From a bacterium (GTDB taxonomy: Bacteria > Patescibacteriota > Andersenbacteria > UBA10190 > CAIZMI01): a stretch of DNA of 64,000 nt. Each line of letters begins with the position of its first letter. Within the stretch, counting starts at the first letter, position 1. Location: NCBI GenBank assembly GCA_030647555.1, contig JAUSJG010000007.1, positions 106,181 to 170,180 on the forward strand, read 5' to 3'. Position numbers and translations under genes: made by a program. Below, piece after piece: positions 11,073-58,160 of this stretch. Under the pieces are notes generated by a model, which saw only the letters and a list, made by a program, of their open reading frames with translations, was not told the DNA's origin and made no database searches.

Positions 11073-11155
11073 TACCGGAGGAGGGAGTCGAACCCACATG
11101 ACCGTAAGGTCACACGATTTTGAGTCGTGCGCGTAAACCATTCCGCCACTCCGGC
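11073..11155 (-). tRNA. tRNA-Leu (anticodon CAA), type II with long variable arm
   Basis: Rev-comp folds as acceptor GCCGGAG/CTCCGGT + discriminator A, D-arm with GG, anticodon stem CACGA/TCGTG with loop CTCAAAA, variable arm GACC-TTAC-GGTC, T-loop TTCGACT; CCA not encoded. Confidence 0.75.
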
Positions 11156-38705: not shown

Positions 38706-39179
38706 TCACACCTTGATGTTGTCGATAGTGATTTCGGCGAGGACCACTTCGCGAAGATCGTCGAGTGGTGGCCACTTGATGATTTCCACCTCCGGTTTGC
38801 CGGAGTGTTGGCGGATTGTGGCCGGCGGATTACTGCCCGTGTGGTCCATGCGCACAAAATTCACTTTGGTGCATCCTCGGGCAATCAGTTTGTAGATCAT
38901 CTCCGCCGCCTTATCTTCTGCCTGTAACTGCGCTTTTTGCGGATCGCAGTCATCTGCCCCGAAGAGGAAAAACTTTCTCACCCGCACTTTTGTGCAGCCA
39001 ACCACGGTCCGCTCCGAGTCGGAGGGATCCGGAAGTGATCCGTAACGGTGTGTTCCCGTCACCTCAAGTAACACCACCCAGAATGACCGCGATTTTAACT
39101 GAGGCGTGTTGGTTCGATCAGCGAGACTCGCGATCCGCCCTCTCGTTGCGCACTCGATCAGACTGATTTTTGCACTCAT
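38706..39179 (-). CDS. Island gene B, hypothetical (157 aa)
   Basis: AAAGGAG SD 6 nt upstream of ATG at 39179. Confidence 0.55.
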   Translation of the reverse strand: MSAKISLIECATRGRIASLADRTNTPQLKSRSFWVVLLEVTGTHRYGSLPDPSDSERTVVGCTKVRVRKFFLFGADDCDPQKAQLQAEDKAAEMIYKLIARGCTKVNFVRMDHTGSNPPATIRQHSGKPEVEIIKWPPLDDLREVVLAEITIDNIKV

Positions 39180-39796
39180 GTTCATCTCCTTTTGTTGATG
39201 TTGACCTGCTCGCGCCACAAAAAAACCTCAAATACGCTATTGAGGTTGTTTGTGTTTCTTCCACCCGCTTTTGGGCCTTCATGAGGCACAAAAGTGAGAG
39301 AAGAACGGGATCACGGGGACGTGCTCCCCTACAGCGATTATCGCCGCCAGAGTCCGAGTTTAACCCCACTTCGCTTCCGCCAGCCGGCGAAGCTACGCGG
39401 GGCAAAGAAAAACGATTGGGAGATATCTTCAGACGCTTACGGCGAGAAGAGATCTCCCAATCGTTTATAGGGTGGGATAATCAATCGGGAGGTCGAAGGA
39501 GCGATGCCTTCGTTTCCGCATAAAACCAGCCAAATCAGCCTTTGATTCGCTTACAATACAGTTGTTTCATATGCGGTCTCTACCTCGCTTGTCCCCGTGA
39601 TGTGGGGCTCGTTAGGTTTTGAAGGCACCATCCGTTTCCTTCTTAAACCGCTTCAGCCTGGATAAGTATAATGATCCTAGAAATCTTGTCAAGGGCATGT
39701 TTTTCCGCTTGCTATTATGTCTTATCGAATATTAAATTAAAAAAAGCACCAGTTTTTTAGACTGGTGCTGTTGGATATCTTCGAATATCCGTTACG

Positions 39797-41074
39797 TTAA
39801 ACGATCCACGCCCGATAGTACTTCCCTTCATCGCCGAGAAGGCAAACCAAGTACGGCCCGGAGCGACAGATATCCCGCGATGGCAAAACGATCTTACCGC
39901 GATGCTTTGCCACGAAGGATCCCGACTTGGTGCGACTCGGCTCCGTGAAATCAAGCTCAAGCAACACTTCGCTCGACTCAAGTTGCTCAACGAGCATGAC
40001 CAAACAGGAGTGCTTGCCGTGCAGAACCACGGCCTTGTAGACGCCCGTCACCGACTTAACCCATCTCTCAACATAACATTCGAGTTGAGTGATACGGTGC
40101 CATCGGCCATCCTTTTTTACGAGAATGTACCGGCCACGTTCCGACCTAACGGACAAAACCGTTTCGGGATTGACCAGGTTCCACCGATGTATGCTTTCGG
40201 TAGTGTTCGCCATTTCCTCCACGTTGCACGCCACGTCGTGAAAGGCATCGTTCGTTTTTTGCACCAAGCGACTGATTGCAACTGCCTTCTTTTCGACTGC
40301 TTCGGCCGAGGCAAGTGCCTTCTCCACCCCATTGCCGGACGCGACGCGTAGCTTGTCGGCCAAATCCTTCAGCCTCGCAAGCACATTCGTGACGCGCTCA
40401 TGAAACAGTTGCATTTCTGCCGACTTCCGTCTGATCGCTTCCAGCTTCTCGCGAATGACTTTGTCTTTCGCAAGCAACTCTCTGATCCGCTCGATTTGAT
40501 CAATCGTGATCATTTTTGGAAGCAATCGCGAATGGCGAAAGCCGAACAACTCACCACACCGGAGCAAGTTCACAAGTGGAAATCGTCGAGTGGCTTTGTA
40601 GAAAGCAATTACCATGTCGGCGTCGTCTGTCGTCGGGGCAAACCCCAATTGAGTAATCGTGTAAACGATGTCGGCAACCTCTTCTGTCAGCCGACCCGCA
40701 CACAATTCCTCTTTCAACCAACCAACGACCGTTCGATCCGCAAGTTTTCTCCAATATCGACGAAGGTTGCCCTTCATGGCGTGAATCGGGGAAACACTCT
40801 CCACTTTCCCATGGCTGACCAAATGGACAAGCTTCTCGTGGCACTCCTCGCCCACGATGAGATAACTTCCATTTTGGGAATTGGAAAGAGTAACGCAGAC
40901 CTTGATCCGCTTGTTGCAGAGATGACAGTTATGCCAGCTTTTGGAGGCGTGGATCCTTACCAGATCCCACTCCATTGCCGCACTATCGAGTTCCCTCGCG
41001 TGCGACGCGTTGACTAGGTTCCGTGCCAGCTTTTGATGGGACCAATGACGTCCCACGGTTGGGGCAGTTTTCAT
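39797..41074 (-). CDS. Island gene A, hypothetical 425-aa protein with putative N-terminal zinc-binding Cys/His cluster and central coiled coil
   Basis: AGGAAGGA SD upstream; CHLCNKRIKVC...GEECHEKL cluster; heptad-like region ~aa 190-280; TTGACA box ~50 nt upstream. Confidence 0.6.
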   Translation of the reverse strand: MKTAPTVGRHWSHQKLARNLVNASHARELDSAAMEWDLVRIHASKSWHNCHLCNKRIKVCVTLSNSQNGSYLIVGEECHEKLVHLVSHGKVESVSPIHAMKGNLRRYWRKLADRTVVGWLKEELCAGRLTEEVADIVYTITQLGFAPTTDDADMVIAFYKATRRFPLVNLLRCGELFGFRHSRLLPKMITIDQIERIRELLAKDKVIREKLEAIRRKSAEMQLFHERVTNVLARLKDLADKLRVASGNGVEKALASAEAVEKKAVAISRLVQKTNDAFHDVACNVEEMANTTESIHRWNLVNPETVLSVRSERGRYILVKKDGRWHRITQLECYVERWVKSVTGVYKAVVLHGKHSCLVMLVEQLESSEVLLELDFTEPSRTKSGSFVAKHRGKIVLPSRDICRSGPYLVCLLGDEGKYYRAWIV

Positions 41075-50916: not shown

Positions 50917-51078
50917 TGCTTTAGTATAGCATTTATAGCACTAAATACCGAAAAATGACCAGAATAATTACGCGACGCTGGCGATGCCTGTCTTTTTGCC
51001 GTTTACAAATAAAGTATTTAGTTTTAAATTGATCGCGCGTCTCAACACACAATGTACATTCGTCAAAGGATACGGCAA

Positions 51079-51591
51079 ATGAACAGGTTACAAGAAGTTC
51101 TTGCCCTTACAGACATGATTGTGCGTATTCTGCCCAGGCTGGTCGCCGAAGTCAGGAAACAAAACATCAAGACACTTCTCGATATGGTTGATCTCGGTTC
51201 ATTCACCTCCAGATCACAGCTCGAATCTGTTCTTGATGAGGTACTCAGAAACAAGTGCGCCACGAGATCATACACGGACAGCGAAAGTGAGATTCGTCTC
51301 TTCGCTGGTTTCCTGGGAAGACTGAAGAAGGCTTGGGAACAAGAAATTGTGGTCACCTTCACAGAAAGCGGCAACCGCCTGTACGTTACCTACGCACTGC
51401 CACCGGAAAAAAAGCGAGCAACAGTCCCCTCCCAGCTCATCGTGGCGCATGGAGACGGTGCTTCAATGACGGGTCTGACGGACCATGATCTCCTGCGAGA
51501 CATTGACATTGCGATCCAAGCCGGACAGACCCCCGCTGAGCAAGTCCTCTCCTTGGCAAAACTTGGTCACGCAGCCAGTGAACCGGGGTGA
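51079..51591 (+). CDS. Hypothetical protein, GC-rich
   Basis: AAAGGA SD 8 nt upstream of ATG 51079. Confidence 0.45.
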   Translation: MNRLQEVLALTDMIVRILPRLVAEVRKQNIKTLLDMVDLGSFTSRSQLESVLDEVLRNKCATRSYTDSESEIRLFAGFLGRLKKAWEQEIVVTFTESGNRLYVTYALPPEKKRATVPSQLIVAHGDGASMTGLTDHDLLRDIDIAIQAGQTPAEQVLSLAKLGHAASEPG

Positions 51592-51681: not shown

Positions 51682-52131
51682 ATGTCCACCATCGCCGAAA
51701 ACAAGGAAGCGCACCATAAATACCTCATCGAGGAAACTCTTGAGGCGGGTGTTGTTTTGACCGGCCACGAAGTCAAATCGGCCCGCAAGGGCACGGTTTC
51801 CCTTAAGGGGGCCTACGCAACATTGAAGGGCGAAGAAGTTATTTTGGTCAACGCTCACATCGGCAGTTTTCAGCCGGGCAACGCCCCAGACGGTTATGAC
51901 CCGACTCGTTCCCGCAAATTGCTTCTACACACCGCCGAAATAAAAAAGATTATCGGAAAAAATAAAGCCCAAGGATTAACAATGGTGCCACTAAAATTCT
52001 ATGCCTCGCGTGGCAAGATTAAAGTTCAACTCGGCATCGCCCGCACCAAATCAAAAGCCGATAAACGCGAATCACTAAAGAAACAAGAAGCCAACCGCGA
52101 AATCGCGCGCGCGATGCGGGTAAAGAAATGA
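51682..52131 (+). CDS. smpB: SsrA-binding protein SmpB
   Basis: Conserved HHKYLIEETLEAGVVLTGHEVKS..., basic C-terminal tail. Confidence 0.9.
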   Translation: MSTIAENKEAHHKYLIEETLEAGVVLTGHEVKSARKGTVSLKGAYATLKGEEVILVNAHIGSFQPGNAPDGYDPTRSRKLLLHTAEIKKIIGKNKAQGLTMVPLKFYASRGKIKVQLGIARTKSKADKRESLKKQEANREIARAMRVKK

Positions 52132-52925
52132 ACAATTACAAACGCGCTTATTTTAATACAACTATTTTTTTTAAAACTTTTATTCATCGAATAGTTAATC
52201 ACTACGGCTACGAAATTAACAAAACGACAACTATAAAAAGATTCGGTGATGAATATCAAGCGCTAATAAGCCTTTATTGTAAAGAACTGAATTTTGAACT
52301 CCGCACCGAAACCAATGATGCCTTTATTTTTAAGGAAGTCTTTATTGATAATTGCTATAATCTTCCCCCTTCCATCGCGGGTCAAACGGTGGTTGATCTG
52401 GGTGCTCATATTGGCACCTTCTCACTGCTTGCCCTGCGTCACGGTGCAGAAAAAGTAATCGCTGTAGAACCGGATATGGTAGGTTTTCAAATACTAAAAC
52501 AACACCTTTCCAAATTTCCCAACATAGTTTTCTACAATAACGCAATCTGGAAAAACAATACTGACGATATAATGCTCTGTGGCCCGAGCAAGAAACTACC
52601 CACACATTATCGGGCGCTTGAAACCACTTCTGCGAACTTGCCTCCTGTTTGCCAAAAAGCAAAACCGATAACACTGGCAGAAATATTCTTAGAACAAAGG
52701 CTTGAAAAAATAGATATTCTAAAAATAGATATTGAAGGAGGAGAAATAGAAGTATTTTCTTCGCTACCCCAAGAATACTTTGCAAAAATCAATAACATCG
52801 TTGGCGAATGGCACGGACAAGAAGCATTGTGTGTTCTCCGGCAATATCTATCACCTTTCTATGATTTAGAATTCCGTGAAGATAACCCCAATGTCGACTA
52901 CTTTTTCGCGCATAAAAAACAATAA
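52128..52925 (+). CDS. FkbM-family SAM-dependent methyltransferase
   Basis: VVDLGAHIGTFSLLALRHGAEKVIAVEPD motif I; 4-nt overlap with smpB stop. Confidence 0.7.
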   Translation: MNNYKRAYFNTTIFFKTFIHRIVNHYGYEINKTTTIKRFGDEYQALISLYCKELNFELRTETNDAFIFKEVFIDNCYNLPPSIAGQTVVDLGAHIGTFSLLALRHGAEKVIAVEPDMVGFQILKQHLSKFPNIVFYNNAIWKNNTDDIMLCGPSKKLPTHYRALETTSANLPPVCQKAKPITLAEIFLEQRLEKIDILKIDIEGGEIEVFSSLPQEYFAKINNIVGEWHGQEALCVLRQYLSPFYDLEFREDNPNVDYFFAHKKQ

Positions 52926-52997: not shown

Positions 52998-54035
52998 CTA
53001 CGCGCTTCTCATGATCACCTCCGGTGCTTCACTTACCAGGCAACGAATTCCGGCGTTCATCCACACTGGATAGTAACGAATCGGGACGGCAGTAGTGAAG
53101 ACATTTTCGCGACCAACAATGTCCGCGACCAACGCCTCCACATCGGGATCACCGGAAGTCATGAGCACACGCCCACCATCCACCTGCAATAGATTAAGGG
53201 CGTATGGAACACATAATGTCTGGGCTGGCACATGCACTGTGATGTCGAGCGGTTTACAGACCCGCTGAAGCAACGCAACTGTTTCTCCCGGTTCACGTGC
53301 TGTCCAGTTCTGTCCCTGAAGCCACTCCGTGGAAAAGTTCAAACGATCCATTACGAAATGGAGCGACTTGTCTTGAGCCGAGAGCAGTGTGCCAATCCGA
53401 TCCAGGTGGTCGTTGTATGAAACCTTTTCCGTTACACCACCCCAGCCATAACGAAGGGCCACAAGAAAAGGTATTTCTCCAAACTGCATACCCATCTCGC
53501 GCAAAATCTGCACATCGTCTTCCCAAAGCGACCGTGACGGTCCAACATCTTCGGTTCGCAAACGATCACCGATAAGTGCTGTTCTTCCGGAGTAGAGCAT
53601 GCGTCCGCCCTCACCCCACACAGACTTCGCAATCCGCCACCCATCCTTAGATGAGACGACGCTCTCAATCCCACAAGGATTGAGGAGCAGCGTTTTCAAA
53701 TCCTGATGGACAGTACAGAAGTCTCGCGGATACAGGACGGTTGAAGGGGCGTGACCCGGAAACGCCGCCAGCCTACAACCCAACGCTTGATTGAGAGTAA
53801 ACACATAGGCTTGGTCGACCTTGGTTATGTCGCGACACACGATTCGAAAATCGACACTCATCTGTTTCAGAGCATAAGCGATCGCCGCGTGCTCCCTTCT
53901 CAGATTTTCTGCCACGATAGCCATCGTCCTGGACTCATCCAAGACATCTTGGCACAACCGCGCTTGGCCAGCGGGGGCGAAGAAATCGTTTCGACGCGCG
54001 ATATTAAACTTCGGTTCTCCCAGTAGGTACATCAT
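52998..54035 (-). CDS. Hypothetical protein, possibly pentein/amidinotransferase-like fold
   Basis: GGAGG SD, start likely at second ATG pair; C-terminal GIRCL could be a catalytic-Cys motif; assignment speculative. Confidence 0.45.
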   Translation of the reverse strand: MMYLLGEPKFNIARRNDFFAPAGQARLCQDVLDESRTMAIVAENLRREHAAIAYALKQMSVDFRIVCRDITKVDQAYVFTLNQALGCRLAAFPGHAPSTVLYPRDFCTVHQDLKTLLLNPCGIESVVSSKDGWRIAKSVWGEGGRMLYSGRTALIGDRLRTEDVGPSRSLWEDDVQILREMGMQFGEIPFLVALRYGWGGVTEKVSYNDHLDRIGTLLSAQDKSLHFVMDRLNFSTEWLQGQNWTAREPGETVALLQRVCKPLDITVHVPAQTLCVPYALNLLQVDGGRVLMTSGDPDVEALVADIVGRENVFTTAVPIRYYPVWMNAGIRCLVSEAPEVIMRSA

Positions 54036-54113
54036 TCGACCCATCCTCCAAAAAGAGATTAAATTTTCAAAAAAGGACGACCCTCTACTATACTTATATT
54101 TTCACGATTGTCA

Positions 54114-54147
54114 ACGCATCGTAATGTAACACGCATCGTAATGTAAC
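54114..54147 (+). repeat. Tandem direct repeat 2 x ACGCATCGTAATGTAAC in divergent promoter region
   Basis: Read directly; partial inverted copy GCATTACATTAG at 54306-54318. Confidence 0.7.
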
Positions 54148-54412
54148 CACTCACTGGTCGAGATTTATCTGGGACCGTCCCTGCACGCCAGGGTCGGTCA
54201 CAGATAAACAAAATTACTTACAAATCAAACTAATTACTCACACTTCCTCAACCTGTGAGCGGTTACATTCATAATGCCTCAGTGGATTGGGACACCAACT
54301 ATTGAAGCATTACATTAGTATGGACCCCCGACTTCTCGGGGGTGGTGGATTTTTCTGATACTTACTGTAATATCGACTTTCAGGCGGGTGAGGAGCTACT
54401 TACGCGTTATAT

Positions 54413-54441
54413 TTGACAAATTCAAATAAATCTTATAATAT
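54413..54441 (+). promoter_or_regulatory. Consensus sigma70-type promoter TTGACA-17nt-TAATAT
   Basis: Read directly; lies upstream of ATG 54503, so the upstream TTG of the longest ORF is the -35 box. Confidence 0.6.
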
Positions 54442-54502
54442 ACTACGTTCAGTTACGGAACGATTTTTTGACAATTTTCCTCCTTCTTCAGGGAACCCTG
54501 CC

Positions 54503-56317
54503 ATGTCCATGTCAATGGGATGTTACGTCGGTGCGTATCTCACTCAAGCGGTCGTTCAGGTTGCATCACTATCCCCAATCCAATGGAGCCTGCTCAGTGC
54601 GTACGCCAAATACGGCTACGGCCCACCTCCTTACGTCGAGCCGACGTATGAGGATGAAACTTTCCACCCCCGGCTCAAGCTCAAACTCCAACAGATCGTC
54701 GGCTTTGAGGAGATGGAACACTCCCTCCGCATGCAGTATGTCGACGCGGCCAACGAAGTATTTCGTTTCGCCTACACACGCGGACGAGATGAGGACGATG
54801 AACAGAAAGGATTCTACAAAATCCCCCTCCTGCGCAATCGCCGGATCATGGATGATCCAGAAGGCATCGACCGCATCAAGATTCGCATTAGTCGCGCGGA
54901 ATACGAACGTGCCAACGCGATCCTGGAAGCCGTCGGCGAACTGGAAAGGATCGCACGCGCCATTCCATACTACGAGCTGTACTGCACGGTCAAGAAAAAC
55001 CTGCGGCGTCAGTTCAAAGTTGGGCTCGATGATGTGGTCTTAGTATCGATTGACCGCGGTGGTCGACTCCCCTGCATCATCCTTCAACGAGCATTGAACA
55101 TGCCCTGCATGTTCTCGCTCAAAGTAGACCAGGGCGGACGAGGCCTGGACGAAGACCGTCTCCTCGAATTCGTTTCGGACGGCACTCTGCGAGACAAGCA
55201 TGTCCTCTTTGTGGACTCGACCGTGGATTCGGGACGTCAGATCCGAGTGTTAGAGCGTTACTTCGATGATTCCAACTGGCGAGCCAGACTGGGACACCGA
55301 AGTTGGTCCATCGTCGGATCAAACGACTACGCCGAAAATCTCGGTCACCACTTGAACGTCAATTGGGGTGTCGATCCCGACCGAACGTTTGAGGACAACC
55401 CCCAACTAATGGGGATCGACTACGCTCCGGGAAGTCACACGAAGGTCGTTGATTTTCCGTCGCAAGCCGCGACCGACATTCGCAGATGTTTGTTGGCAGT
55501 GCCGGATGGCTACATCTACACTACCTCAGACATCGACGAACAACTCGCCACCCAACGCGAAAAATGGCAGCAACGCCAAAAGGAGCGTCGGGCGGAACAC
55601 AGACGGCAAGTGGCGACAGAAAAAGCGACTCATCGAAGCGAAACAGCGCAACATCGACAGCGAGTGAAGGCTGCCGACAAGGCCGATCGTCTCGATCGTG
55701 AATTGCGACGAATCACCTCTTCCAAGCGTTGGCAAGCACTCAAGCGTGCAAGCCAAAGTCTGCCGGAAGAGACATTGCCTCAAGCGGTTCAAAACGGGCA
55801 AGCCCACGAAATGCACAACGTGCTAATCGTGGGCGCGCGCCAGCAGAACCTGCCACAGGCAACGGTAGATTTCGTCGCCGACAACCTTGGCCCTCACTGC
55901 TCACTGTTTGCCGGAACGCCCAAAGGCAACCCCGGCGCCGTCCTCAAGGCGGTGCTGGCAAGCCAGAAGGTTCCGCAACCGGAGGTGCGTCTGTATCAAA
56001 CAGAGCACATGCGGGGACAAGTCGATCCAGCATTCGGCAACTCGCCGGTCGTGTTCGTCGGTCCAGACAAGCACGACGTGCGCTACAGGATGATCGATGA
56101 CTCGCACGCAGTCCTCGCTCTGGGTGGAGAAGATGGGACGCTGGAAGAAGTGCTCCAAGCACTTCTCTCGGATAAGCCCACCTTCATTATCTCGGGTTAC
56201 GGACCAGTCGCCGCCTACGTCGCCGGTAGCAAGCAGCTTCGAAAGAAGAAGAGCTTGCACATCTGTTCCAGTGTGGCCGAGGCGGTACAGCTGATCCTAG
56301 ACGCGTCCAAAGCCTAG
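54503..56317 (+). CDS. Multidomain protein: unknown N-domain + type-I phosphoribosyltransferase (PRTase) domain + highly charged helical linker + LOG/SLOG (Lonely-Guy-like) domain
   Basis: PRPP motif HVLFVDSTVDSGRQI and upstream VVLVSIDRGGRLPCIIL; linker QREKWQQRQKERRAEHRRQ...; LOG motif AVLALGGEDGTLEEVLQAL...KPTFIISGYGP. Confidence 0.6.
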   Translation: MSMSMGCYVGAYLTQAVVQVASLSPIQWSLLSAYAKYGYGPPPYVEPTYEDETFHPRLKLKLQQIVGFEEMEHSLRMQYVDAANEVFRFAYTRGRDEDDEQKGFYKIPLLRNRRIMDDPEGIDRIKIRISRAEYERANAILEAVGELERIARAIPYYELYCTVKKNLRRQFKVGLDDVVLVSIDRGGRLPCIILQRALNMPCMFSLKVDQGGRGLDEDRLLEFVSDGTLRDKHVLFVDSTVDSGRQIRVLERYFDDSNWRARLGHRSWSIVGSNDYAENLGHHLNVNWGVDPDRTFEDNPQLMGIDYAPGSHTKVVDFPSQAATDIRRCLLAVPDGYIYTTSDIDEQLATQREKWQQRQKERRAEHRRQVATEKATHRSETAQHRQRVKAADKADRLDRELRRITSSKRWQALKRASQSLPEETLPQAVQNGQAHEMHNVLIVGARQQNLPQATVDFVADNLGPHCSLFAGTPKGNPGAVLKAVLASQKVPQPEVRLYQTEHMRGQVDPAFGNSPVVFVGPDKHDVRYRMIDDSHAVLALGGEDGTLEEVLQALLSDKPTFIISGYGPVAAYVAGSKQLRKKKSLHICSSVAEAVQLILDASKA

Positions 56318-56375: not shown

Positions 56376-58160
56376 TTATTCCTGCTTGTTAACCGTCTGA
56401 TATTTTTCCCAAAGCTCAACGAATTCGGGAGAGTCTTTCAGTAATTGCTCAAGTGTCCCCGACGCAATAATTTTTCCGTCTTTAAAGAAATAAATTTCCT
56501 CGAATAGACGTAACAAGTGCAACCGATGAATGGACGCTAAAATCGATTTCTTTTTAAACTTCGCGAAAATGTTTTGGAAAATAATCAGTTCGTTTTGCGT
56601 ATCAATCGAGCTTGTCGGTTCATCCAGTAAAACAATCGATTTATCGTCGCAGGCCATTAGTCCGCGCGCGAGAGCAAGCCGTTGTTTTTCCCCACCGCTC
56701 AAATTGACGCCCTTCTCAACAATATTGGAATCCAGTTTCTTGGGCAGACTCTCAATGACGTCGGAAATACAAGCCATATCGGTAAACTTTTTTATATAGG
56801 CCGGTTTATAGTTGATACCCATCGTAATATTTTCTCTAATCGTAGTGGAAAAAATTTCCGGATCTTGCGGAATCAACGCGATATCTTCGCTAATCGATTT
56901 AAATCCTTCTTTTAGCAACTTACCGTCAAGATAAAGCTGAATATCTTGCGGACTATATAATTCCCGAATAATTTTTAAGAAAGTTGTTTTTCCGCTCCCG
57001 CTTTCACCGATCAAAGCAATCCGCGCGCCGTTTTTTATCGTCATTGAAACATTATCCAAATGCAATTCCGCGCCGTGGTAAGGGTGATAAGAAAAACTCA
57101 ATCCGGAAATTTTCAACTCGCGCCAATTCGCTTTCAACTCGATTTGTTTCACGCGCTTTATGTCGCTGAAATCTTTGGCCAGTTCTTCCGCGTTCATCAC
57201 CGCCGATTTACGTTGCACAATAATGCCATACATAGAAGCAAAACGGAAAAAGATATCGCTGATGCGATCCACATAACCATACAACGCGTAAACCGTTCCC
57301 ACCAAAATCACCGTTCCCGCGTTGATGTTGGCAAGAAAATACGACCCCAAAACAAGGACCGTCATTAAACTACTGCACACCGACACAAAAAACCATTTTG
57401 TTTCATTAATCCTGTTGTTTCTCACCACCAGTTTAAACGGTGCCATAATTTTTTCGTAAATGGCGGACGACACTAATTTTTCAATCCGCAAAATTATTAC
57501 CGTTGTGATATTGCTGATTGAATCAAAAACTTTCTCGGAAATTTTGTTTTCCGCGGAATAAATTTCTTTGTATTGTTTCACCAGTACTTTATCAAATTGC
57601 GTGATGAGCGTGATGGTAAAAATAACAACAGCGAGCACAATAAAACCGGCATAGTAATTAAAATAGGATAATATAATACATGATGTGATTAAACGCACCG
57701 ACGCCTCAATTATTTCAAACGAATCCTCCGAAAAACGGAATAGCGAAGTCGTGCCTTTTTCCACCTTATCAATTGTGTCACCGGAATGATGATCAACGTG
57801 CCACTCAATCGGCAAAGCCATCACGCCGTCCAATAAATATTTTTTGTAATTGGCGCGCACCCAAAACGCGTTTTTTTGCTCGATTAAACGAGATGGACCG
57901 TGAAACGTCCAAAACACTAAACTGATTAGAAAGAAAATCCCTAAATATATCAACAACAAAGGCAAACTTTCATTTGTAACACCTCTGGCCTGAACCACGT
58001 TCAGTAATTTTGCCATTACTAACGGCCAAAGAGAACTAACACCATTGGCAACAATAGACAACAAAACATACAAGATGACTTTTTTTCGATTGCCTTCGGC
58101 ATATTTCCAAAGCCGAACGGCTAAAAACAAAATGGGGTTATTACTTAACTTCATTTTCAT
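56376..58160 (-). CDS. ABC exporter, fused permease-ATPase
   Basis: 6 TM N-domain; Walker A GESGSGKTT, signature LSGGEKQRLALARGL, Walker B VLLDEPTSSID. Confidence 0.9.
   Translation of the reverse strand: MKMKLSNNPILFLAVRLWKYAEGNRKKVILYVLLSIVANGVSSLWPLVMAKLLNVVQARGVTNESLPLLLIYLGIFFLISLVFWTFHGPSRLIEQKNAFWVRANYKKYLLDGVMALPIEWHVDHHSGDTIDKVEKGTTSLFRFSEDSFEIIEASVRLITSCIILSYFNYYAGFIVLAVVIFTITLITQFDKVLVKQYKEIYSAENKISEKVFDSISNITTVIILRIEKLVSSAIYEKIMAPFKLVVRNNRINETKWFFVSVCSSLMTVLVLGSYFLANINAGTVILVGTVYALYGYVDRISDIFFRFASMYGIIVQRKSAVMNAEELAKDFSDIKRVKQIELKANWRELKISGLSFSYHPYHGAELHLDNVSMTIKNGARIALIGESGSGKTTFLKIIRELYSPQDIQLYLDGKLLKEGFKSISEDIALIPQDPEIFSTTIRENITMGINYKPAYIKKFTDMACISDVIESLPKKLDSNIVEKGVNLSGGEKQRLALARGLMACDDKSIVLLDEPTSSIDTQNELIIFQNIFAKFKKKSILASIHRLHLLRLFEEIYFFKDGKIIASGTLEQLLKDSPEFVELWEKYQTVNKQE

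Follow-up and report, generated by a model that had tools for sequence, protein, structure and literature searches.

A phosphoribosyltransferase–SLOG fusion protein confined to CPR bacteria and DPANN archaea, a candidate accessory nucleotide enzyme, and its divergent pentein-fold neighbour

We studied a protein-coding gene, Q7S57_02030, in a 64,000-nt stretch of contig JAUSJG010000007.1 (assembly GCA_030647555.1, a Patescibacteriota bacterium of the Andersenbacteria); this whole stretch is henceforth referred to as the window, and all window coordinates count from its first letter. The gene encodes a 604-aa protein in which a type-I phosphoribosyltransferase (PRTase) and a SLOG domain are joined in a single polypeptide, and it lies divergent to a gene for a 345-aa protein (Q7S57_02025). 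We conclude that the fusion is a genuine, uncharacterised architectural variant assembled from known enzyme folds, relevant mainly to the physiology of bacteria in the Candidate Phyla Radiation (CPR) and of DPANN archaea. We tentatively read it as a stand-alone accessory nucleobase or nucleotide enzyme that would have been exchanged horizontally among these genome-reduced organisms.

The plus-strand open reading frame (ORF) gives 634 aa when read from a TTG at 54413 and 604 aa when read from the ATG at 54503, with the stop at 56317; the ATG agrees with both the N-termini of homologues and the NCBI call (P0001, 100% identical to the 604-aa protein and annotated as “MAG: hypothetical protein Q7S57_02030 [bacterium]”). 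Its homologues (n = 139) are mostly full length, at 530–630 aa, and those of the 345-aa neighbour number 70; because full-length homologues are this plentiful, both ORFs are genes and not chance reading frames. For comparison there is a 4.8-kb contig from a sister genome (L032), whose ArgS and SmpB are 92% and 97% identical in amino-acid sequence to those in the window. Against this contig the ratio of nonsynonymous to synonymous substitution rates (dN/dS) was 0.145 for the fusion, 0.122 for the neighbour, 0.016 for SmpB and 0.033 for ArgS, ratios which are rough given that dS is near saturation. This indicates that the fusion is under purifying selection and hence a functional gene, with constraint 4–9 times more relaxed than in its housekeeping neighbours. 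The features of the gene are as follows (all on the plus strand):

54503..56317: coding sequence of the 604-aa N-domain / PRTase / coiled-coil / SLOG fusion, Q7S57_02030 (ORF, homologues and AlphaFold2 model)
54554..55006: family-specific alpha/beta N-terminal domain, aa 18–168 (invariant residues; no relatives recognised)
55010..55525: type-I PRTase core with a strongly conserved “hood”, aa 170–341
aa 184–190: pyrophosphate (PPi) loop DRGGRLP
55202–55243: phosphoribosyl pyrophosphate (PRPP) loop VLFVDSTVDSGRQI, aa 234–247
55532..55750: long helix or coiled-coil linker rich in charged residues, aa 344–416 (gapped in the family alignment)
55808..56317: SLOG domain of the TIGR00725/TM1055 type, aa 436–604

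The AlphaFold2 model of the protein (mean predicted local distance difference test score, pLDDT, of 89.7) comprises four parts: an alpha/beta N-domain at approximately 18–168 (pLDDT 83–97), the PRTase core with its hood at 170–341, a helix at 344–416 (modelled as helices 344–406 and 408–416) and a C-terminal alpha/beta domain at 436–604. The Rossmann-like fold of the PRTase core and the Rossmannoid fold of SLOG proteins are both present, the latter in the C-terminal domain. When the model was compared with all PDB chains using Foldseek, LOG, TM1055 and PpnN structures ranked on top and 6-oxopurine PRTases came next, and no chain spanned more than one domain of the fusion (TM-score on the query, TMq, ≤ 0.24). 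The architecture is thus without counterpart among solved structures, and our full-text literature searches (SLOG with PRTase, LDcluster4, and CPR or DPANN with PRTase) found no description of it; an earlier sequence-only reading of this region had likewise known of no characterised example.

Profile searches with the window protein alone gave sub-threshold matches to PF18163 (E = 5e-4), TIGR00725 (1e-3; 18.6 bits vs. a cut-off of 106.9), PF18306, which is SLOG cluster 4 in Pfam (2.6e-3; 17.8 bits vs. 26.3), and PF00156 (7.6e-3; 16.0 bits vs. 26.3), while the LOG model PF03641 scored 12.5 bits (E = 0.17; cut-off 27) and the LOG family model TIGR00730 gave no match to the fusion. The picture is clearer at the level of the family. 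Among 42 homologues, 41 matched PF18306 and 22 matched PF00156 at E ≤ 0.01 (the latter with a best value of 1.9e-7), PF03641 matched just one at the same threshold, and five orthologues (P0196, P0209, P0193, P0198 and P0192) exceeded the PF18306 gathering score with 28.6–35.6 bits. A profile built from the 42 homologues matched the structure of TM1055 (1rcu, 1.6e-5) as well as two purine PRTases of archaea, 4trb (1e-4) and 1vdm (1.8e-4), and PRTase and SLOG were the only domains that Pfam found across the window protein and the 42 family members. At the family level the two assignments are unambiguous, and the family profiles and the structural comparison bear out the two domains first recognised from the sequence. 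The motifs then quoted, together with the Arg/Lys/Glu/Gln-rich helix (55532–55750), are likewise where they had been placed.

The alignment of the 42 sequences, which come from both bacteria and archaea, contains 57 invariant columns and has a mean column identity of 47%. In the PRTase half, the segment D184-R-G-G-R-x-P190 is invariant, and HMM (hidden Markov model) alignments pair it with the PPi loop, ARGGLxP, of the 4trb and 1vdm enzymes; VLFVDSTVDSGRQ pairs column for column with the PRPP loops of these two enzymes (VLIIDDITDTG and VVIVDDVSDTG, respectively). Specifically, the loop VLFV-D238-S239-TV-D242-S243-G244-R245-Q246 retains the hydrophobic strand, the first acidic residue, D242, the following Ser/Thr and the Gly; its second acidic residue is replaced by an invariant Ser and its final Thr by Gln in 42/42 sequences, so that D-S-T-V-D-S-G-R-Q stands where D-D-x-x-D-T-G-x-T would be expected. 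The hood carries the motifs GSNE, H283 and NxNWGVDPDxTFEDxPxLMGxDY, which are near-invariant from Parcubacteria to Woesearchaeota, and this argues for a single, defined substrate pocket. Judged by its sequence, the PRTase half is of the 6-oxopurine (Gpt/HGXPRT) class: it shares with these enzymes (E. coli Gpt/XGPRT class NF006613; archaeal 4trb, 1vdm and 4z1o), which are its nearest stand-alone sequence relatives, the type-I fold, the (A/S/D)RGGxxP PPi loop and a hydrophobic strand leading into an acidic PRPP loop with D-x-G. It differs from them in the D-S-T-V-D-S-G-R-Q loop, the unique hood (GSNE..H..NWGVDPDxTFED..GxDY), the additional N-domain of 165 aa, the fused SLOG domain and scores below every family cut-off. 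The PRPP loop, atypical yet invariant, and the hood could point to a PRTase with a new substrate specificity.

The C-terminal domain, which contains LALGGEDGTLEE and KPTFIISGYGP, shows the SLOG motifs VIGxG, AGTPxGNPG, a near-invariant R527, GGxxGTLxE with an invariant E549, and KP. Columns G541, G542, G545, T546 and E549 are invariant, those of G471, T472, G475, N476, P477 and G478 invariant or nearly so, and the Gly-rich loops align with TIGR00725 proteins. TM1055, other TIGR00725 proteins and molybdenum cofactor (MoCo) carrier proteins are, however, stand-alone proteins of approximately 160–180 aa with cofactor-carrier or unassigned roles, whereas the SLOG domain of the fusion is joined to a PRTase and has AGTPxGNPG in place of GGxxG(h). 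LOG proteins, which are cytokinin-riboside-5'-monophosphate phosphoribohydrolases, and the E. coli nucleotide 5'-monophosphate nucleosidase PpnN (YgdH) share its fold (5its, 2a33, 5zbl and the PpnN structures 9hs1/6gfm are the top Foldseek hits). To hydrolyse nucleoside 5'-monophosphates these enzymes employ the Arg of MxxRK and the Glu of PGGxGTxxE, to which R527 (at least 90% conserved) and E549 correspond in alignments with LOG (3qua, 5zbj; motif PGGxGTxEE); both residues align with TIGR00725 proteins as well. In the fusion the second motif reads LGGxxGTLxE, with the Pro before GG missing and one residue extra, and the regulatory domains that flank the catalytic domain of PpnN are absent.

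The remaining two modules are the N-domain and the charged helix. The N-domain had been described as unrecognised and about 190 aa long; the first part of this description stands, and its length is closer to 165 aa. It has its own invariant residues (W28, N84, R88, Y91, P108, R111, R149, I150 and Y156), and searching four family N-domains against Pfam at E values up to 10 returned only DUF7084 at 0.083, i.e., at chance level. The charged helix differs in length between members and many homologues lack it, with large gaps in members of 540–560 aa. Some longer members (P0192–P0198) carry extra regions without informative domains, one of which includes an HTH_8 match that is probably a gene-call fusion.

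The family is rare. Among 5.8 billion proteins it amounts to 139 clusters (90% identity); when 1.84 billion representatives were searched exhaustively by HMM, 34 clusters reached E < 1e-30 and 178 reached E < 1e-3, the latter already including generic PRTases and SLOG proteins; and two invariant peptide patterns located 19 loci among 185,579 species genomes (one genome per species). Every match with a credible taxonomic label comes from CPR bacteria (Uhrbacteria, Yanofskybacteria, Parcubacteria, Peribacteria, Saccharibacteria and Peregrinibacteria) or DPANN archaea (Nanoarchaeota, Micrarchaeota, Woesearchaeota and Diapherotrites), and the few labelled Gammaproteobacteria, Nitrospira, Oligoflexia or Methylomirabilis are likely mis-binned contigs. 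Identity to the window protein is 44–66% for most CPR members and 33–40% for Peregrinibacteria and the DPANN group. The next-nearest relatives are stand-alone PRTase-plus-hood proteins of approximately 240 aa that keep DRGGRIP and FVDSTxKTGHQ, and the stand-alone proteins next in line are xanthine PRTases of the Gpt type and TIGR00725 proteins. One such PRTase-plus-hood protein (P0220, 235 aa), encoded on an archaeal-type contig (L035, 5059–16708), adjoins genes for a RelA/SpoT-family protein, a KaiC-like ATPase and a class-I LysRS and lies within 8 kb of guaA, purE, purC, purF, purB and purA, a neighbourhood that provides a single, weak hint toward purine metabolism.

Base composition points to mobility. 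With a GC content at third codon positions (GC3) of 0.633 (z = +2.7), the fusion gene ranks first among the 44 genes that were scored (itself and 43 reference genes), and the GC3 of the neighbour is 0.558 (z = +1.6); in L032 the corresponding values are 0.665 and 0.578, with 0.409 for ArgS. The difference in GC between the fusion gene and its flanks is approximately 0 in most loci and reaches +0.14 in L001, +0.09 in L025 and −0.075 in L023. We read the GC3 anomaly and these deviations as episodic horizontal transfer, and they suggest that the fusion gene reached this genome from a CPR donor of higher GC, prior to its divergence from the L032 lineage. The sequence-only reading had contrasted both genes with the housekeeping genes of the region, citing their Shine–Dalgarno (SD) sequences and an elevated, non-native GC content. 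A non-native origin is plausible for the fusion gene given its GC3, but two other window genes are equally GC3-rich: the minus-strand ORFs 38706–39218 and 39797–41074 (GC3 of approximately 0.62, no Pfam match), which may be further horizontally acquired genes. As for the SD sequences, the neighbour does have a strong one, but the fusion start is preceded merely by a weak, SD-like AGGGAA at a distance of about 9 nt (AAGGAA in L032), and several other genes of the window also have AGGAG.

What might such a protein do? CPR bacteria and DPANN archaea lack de novo nucleotide synthesis and live by scavenging. In the function that we tentatively favour, the PRTase half would interconvert a purine-like base and PRPP with a 5'-mononucleotide and PPi, while the SLOG half would bind a mononucleotide and, in the version we prefer, most likely cleave it to base and ribose-5-phosphate in the manner of LOG and PpnN, which serve as the model for this step. 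A single polypeptide would then set the balance between bases and nucleotides and the supply of free ribose-phosphate in nucleotide-scavenging organisms. The functional link between the two domains has independent precedent, as one branch of YpsA, a member of the SLOG superfamily, is encoded together with a PRTase in gene pairs that are conserved (PMC6459960), bringing a SLOG protein and a PRTase together as the fusion does.

Several observations weigh against this assignment. The window protein misses the gathering score of every Pfam model, and the Ser and Gly-distal Gln replacements in its PRPP loop mean that substrate or chemistry may depart from purine salvage. Non-catalytic MoCo carrier proteins have the same Arg and Glu as LOG, so R527 and E549 allow hydrolysis but do not prove it. 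A PRTase acting together with a nucleoside monophosphate (NMP) hydrolase would run a futile cycle that wastes PRPP unless it were regulated. Finally, a salvage enzyme of importance would not be expected to be so rare and patchy, a pattern that also typifies accessory genes and conflict genes, and the purine-gene neighbourhood is known from one example only.

These difficulties leave room for other explanations. The fusion might be a sensor-regulated PRTase, in which a non-catalytic SLOG domain would bind an NMP, (p)ppGpp, an ADP-ribose derivative or a similar ligand and switch the PRTase allosterically through the coiled coil and oligomerisation; we consider this possible but unlikely, given that a linker so variable and so often absent is awkward for a conserved allosteric relay and that the LOG-type Arg and Glu are retained. 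It appears quite improbable that the fusion makes or carries a non-canonical cofactor or nucleotide: the PRTase would ribosylate a non-purine heterocycle, as beta-RFAP synthase or CobT do, and the SLOG domain would (again quite improbably) hold or pass on the product in the way of MoCo carrier proteins, but biosynthetic neighbours are absent from every locus, the PRTase half is closest in sequence to Gpt/HGPRT enzymes, and CPR and DPANN genomes are generally without cofactor pathways. The role in nucleotide-based conflict that had been proposed from the sequence also strikes us as improbable. As a single-gene device, the SLOG domain might conceivably sense or process a nucleotide-derived signal during phage attack or episymbiont–host interaction, and the PRTase might, with as little likelihood, deplete PRPP or a base or make a toxic or signalling nucleotide. 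This account does accommodate a family that is rare, patchy and prone to horizontal transfer, the anomalous GC3 in this genome, dN/dS values 4–9 times those of flanking housekeeping genes, and best-matching Pfam models that represent SLOG clusters 2 and 4 (clusters that were reportedly defined when nucleotide-centred conflict systems were surveyed). In its fullest form, which we also doubt, it describes a self-contained nucleotide device traded between CPR and DPANN and used in episymbiotic or antiviral conflicts; its atypical PRTase would hardly be expected to, but might, make or destroy a non-canonical nucleotide or drain PRPP, with the SLOG domain recognising or cleaving the signal. If true, genome-reduced symbionts would have a class of nucleotide-based immunity or host manipulation that is new, specific to them and made of a single protein.

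Conflict genes would be expected to leave other traces, however. PADLOC returned no match for the fusion, its neighbour or a nearby 179-aa ORF, and neither Pfam searches of the protein nor the 22 neighbourhoods examined contained a SIR2, transmembrane or SLATT effector or a TIR or SMODS partner, or any other signal or effector gene. The fusion thus differs from Thoeris ThsA (SIR2-SLOG) and other SLOG sensors, as it comes without a SIR2 or transmembrane effector, a ThsB/TIR gene or a defence-island context. The linkage that characterises Ter-linked PRTase modules was not seen either: genes of the terB/C/D, HAD phosphatase and TelA families were absent from the called genes of L001–L006 and did not recur in ORF clustering. 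The flanks are housekeeping genes; a mobile-element origin was rejected, as no copies turned up in 50,697 phage records and 72,556 plasmid records (tblastn) or in a pattern scan of IMG/VR; and 57 invariant columns across two domains of life, together with purifying selection, are unlike arms-race proteins. We therefore see the positive evidence for a conflict role as limited to rarity and mobility, and the role itself as improbable. Nor is the family a common housekeeping enzyme with conserved synteny, as it is rare, patchy and without synteny.

The sequence-only reading had also treated the two divergent genes as a pair, and the divergent layout, the promoter-like sites on both sides and a compositional anomaly common to the window and L032 would fit a two-gene module with a shared regulatory region. 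Comparison of loci (25 fusion-bearing records, representing 22 distinct places, and four distinct, more distant places bearing the neighbour: L007/8, L009/10, L011/12 and L033/34) largely refutes such a module, which we now consider very improbable. Using tblastn, the neighbour was found in 0/22 other distinct fusion loci (up to 10 kb away) and the fusion in 0/4 of the more distant neighbour loci; only L032 keeps the divergent pair (fusion 86%, neighbour 81% identical), and even there conservation does not extend to the stretch separating the promoters. In L033, where the neighbour is 51% identical, the ABC transporter encoded next to the fusion at 56376–58160 of the window is also present (69% identity), and five different genes occupy the position of the fusion. 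This marks the adjacency as a local and recent feature of gene order, and we conclude that it is a lineage-specific accident. The transporter gene of L033 (392–2173) lies approximately 4 kb upstream of the pentein homologue, so that transporter and pentein genes retain residual synteny with variable content between them.

From locus to locus the neighbours of the fusion gene are entirely different: ParA/ParB and TopA; a glycosyltransferase and TrmB; radical SAM proteins, a CPSF-type beta-CASP nuclease and the proteasome; a ZnuABC-type transporter; and ArgS/SmpB. All-against-all clustering of ORFs from the 22 loci revealed no conserved neighbour, as only the fusion itself, shadow ORFs and generic ABC ATPases recurred, and a conserved neighbourhood was rejected over the surroundings of four fusion homologues and five homologues of the 345-aa protein, 19 GTDB loci, tblastn cross-checks and this clustering. 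Two window features near the neighbour have no counterpart in L032, where the argS, smpB and pentein genes directly adjoin one another: the 179-aa ORF at 51052–51591 (no Pfam match, GC of 0.515) and a gene for an FkbM-family methyltransferase at 52128–52925 (GC of 0.375), whose start overlaps the smpB stop by 4 nt. These differences are recent indels flanking the region.

The spacer between the two genes measures 458 nt, as had been noted, when the neighbour is read from its 348-aa start, but 467 nt with the 345-aa protein for which that length had been quoted. It contains the following features:

54413..54441, plus strand: promoter-like TTGACA-17-TAATAT of the fusion gene, conserved in L032
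54087..54114, minus strand: promoter-like TTGACA-16-TATAGT of the pentein gene, followed by a GGAGG SD sequence, conserved in L032
54114..54147, plus strand: exact tandem duplication of the 17-nt unit ACGCATCGTAATGTAAC, abutting the −35 element of the pentein promoter
54148..54400, no strand assigned: structured insert of approximately 250 nt between the promoters, without counterpart in L032
54164–54208: REP-like (repetitive extragenic palindromic) GC-rich palindrome of 45 nt (TTTATCTGGGACCGTCCCTG-CACGC-CAGGGTCGGTCACAGATAAA)
54324–54353: terminator-like hairpin with a T-run (GC hairpin at 54324–54343) at the end of the insert

The fusion promoter, the tandem 17-nt repeat, an inverted partial copy and GC hairpins had all been picked out from the sequence and were found again, with more than one inverted partial copy and with the hairpins at 54164–54208 and 54324–54343. 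The fusion-promoter hexamers and the leader downstream of them are the same in L032 (blastn block 54407–55739, 84% identity), and the pentein promoter-like site is the better of the two, with 11/12 matches. The 17-nt unit occurs in just these two copies within the window, the inverted partial copies lying in the spacer, and the L032 spacer, read by eye, holds a single, diverged copy. Between 54126 and 54407 there is no alignment to L032. The segment 54105–54360 has a predicted fold of −93 kcal/mol (z = −6.6), and copies of the palindrome with 84–93% identity occur on unrelated short contigs of the metagenome Ga0163199 (L036 568–612, L037 242–287 and L038 896–940), two of them just beyond a gene end (flanks read by eye). 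We interpret the palindrome insert as an element of the dispersed REP-like or MITE-like (miniature inverted-repeat transposable element) kind, which may be a bidirectional terminator or a small RNA; we do not take it for a device that regulates a gene pair. The palindrome itself looks like a repeat belonging to this population or a related one. A known RNA was rejected, as Rfam gave no match in the spacer at either gathering or E-value thresholds; in the whole window the sole Rfam match at gathering level is a tRNA at 11073–11155 (minus strand). Separately, the predicted 5' leader of the fusion mRNA contains a hairpin, CGTTC-AGTTACG-GAACG, followed by a T-run (54446–54462), and a comparable stem-loop can be drawn by eye at the same place in L032; it may be a leader or attenuator structure.

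The neighbour, which had been called an unknown partner, can be placed as a pentein-fold enzyme of the guanidino-group-modifying type:

52998..54035, minus strand: coding sequence of the 345-aa pentein-fold (guanidino-group-modifying-enzyme-like) protein, Q7S57_02025

Its ORF (52998..54044) would allow 348 aa; the ATG at 54035, used by NCBI (P0121), gives 345 aa, has GGAGG-N9-ATG and is the sole start conserved in L032. The protein has the five-fold beta-beta-alpha-beta propeller of the pentein fold. In a family of 42 members, P103-R-D105, G141xGG144, H210-x-D212-R213 and G329-I-(R)-C332 are invariant and D209 and R331 nearly so; D105, H210, D212 and C332 stand in the expected order of pentein catalytic residues, an equivalence judged by order alone. 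This order (Asp, His-x-Asp, Cys) we take to be that of the active sites of peptidyl-arginine deiminase (PAD) and agmatine deiminase. The closest known proteins are agmatine deiminase and Porphyromonas-type PAD (PF04371), DDAH, arginine deiminase and amidinotransferases, with 10–17% identity to PF04371 and the wider pentein superfamily. Sequence models did not detect the 42 members: there was no Pfam match (including PF04371) at E ≤ 0.1, no NCBIfam match, and no match between PDB sequences and the family profile at E ≤ 10. The family has so far been found only on Patescibacteria-type metagenome contigs. The 345-aa protein is best described as belonging to a new, sequence-divergent pentein family of Patescibacteria; it is probably active, as a Cys hydrolase or transferase that acts on a substrate of guanidino or amidino type. 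It is functionally independent of the fusion. Some of its homologues lie in nucleotide-related contexts, which is suggestive but inconsistent: SurE with a 4-nt overlap and CYTH downstream (L009, 5216–7224), a PNP/UDP-family phosphorylase (L007, 3100–3780), and NrdR with ribonucleotide reductase (RNR) and adenylate kinase (Adk; L011, 1050–4182 and 11944–13020).

Little is known of how CPR bacteria and DPANN archaea keep bases, nucleotides and ribose-phosphate in balance, and the fusion provides a testable candidate for a lineage-specific enzyme of salvage or turnover. The neighbouring gene defines a pentein-fold family that sequence models currently miss, and dropping the “pair” and “conflict system” readings averts mis-annotation. 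Finally, the restriction of a four-module protein to two unrelated groups of ultrasmall organisms speaks of gene sharing across domains of life, between organisms whose lifestyles are convergent.

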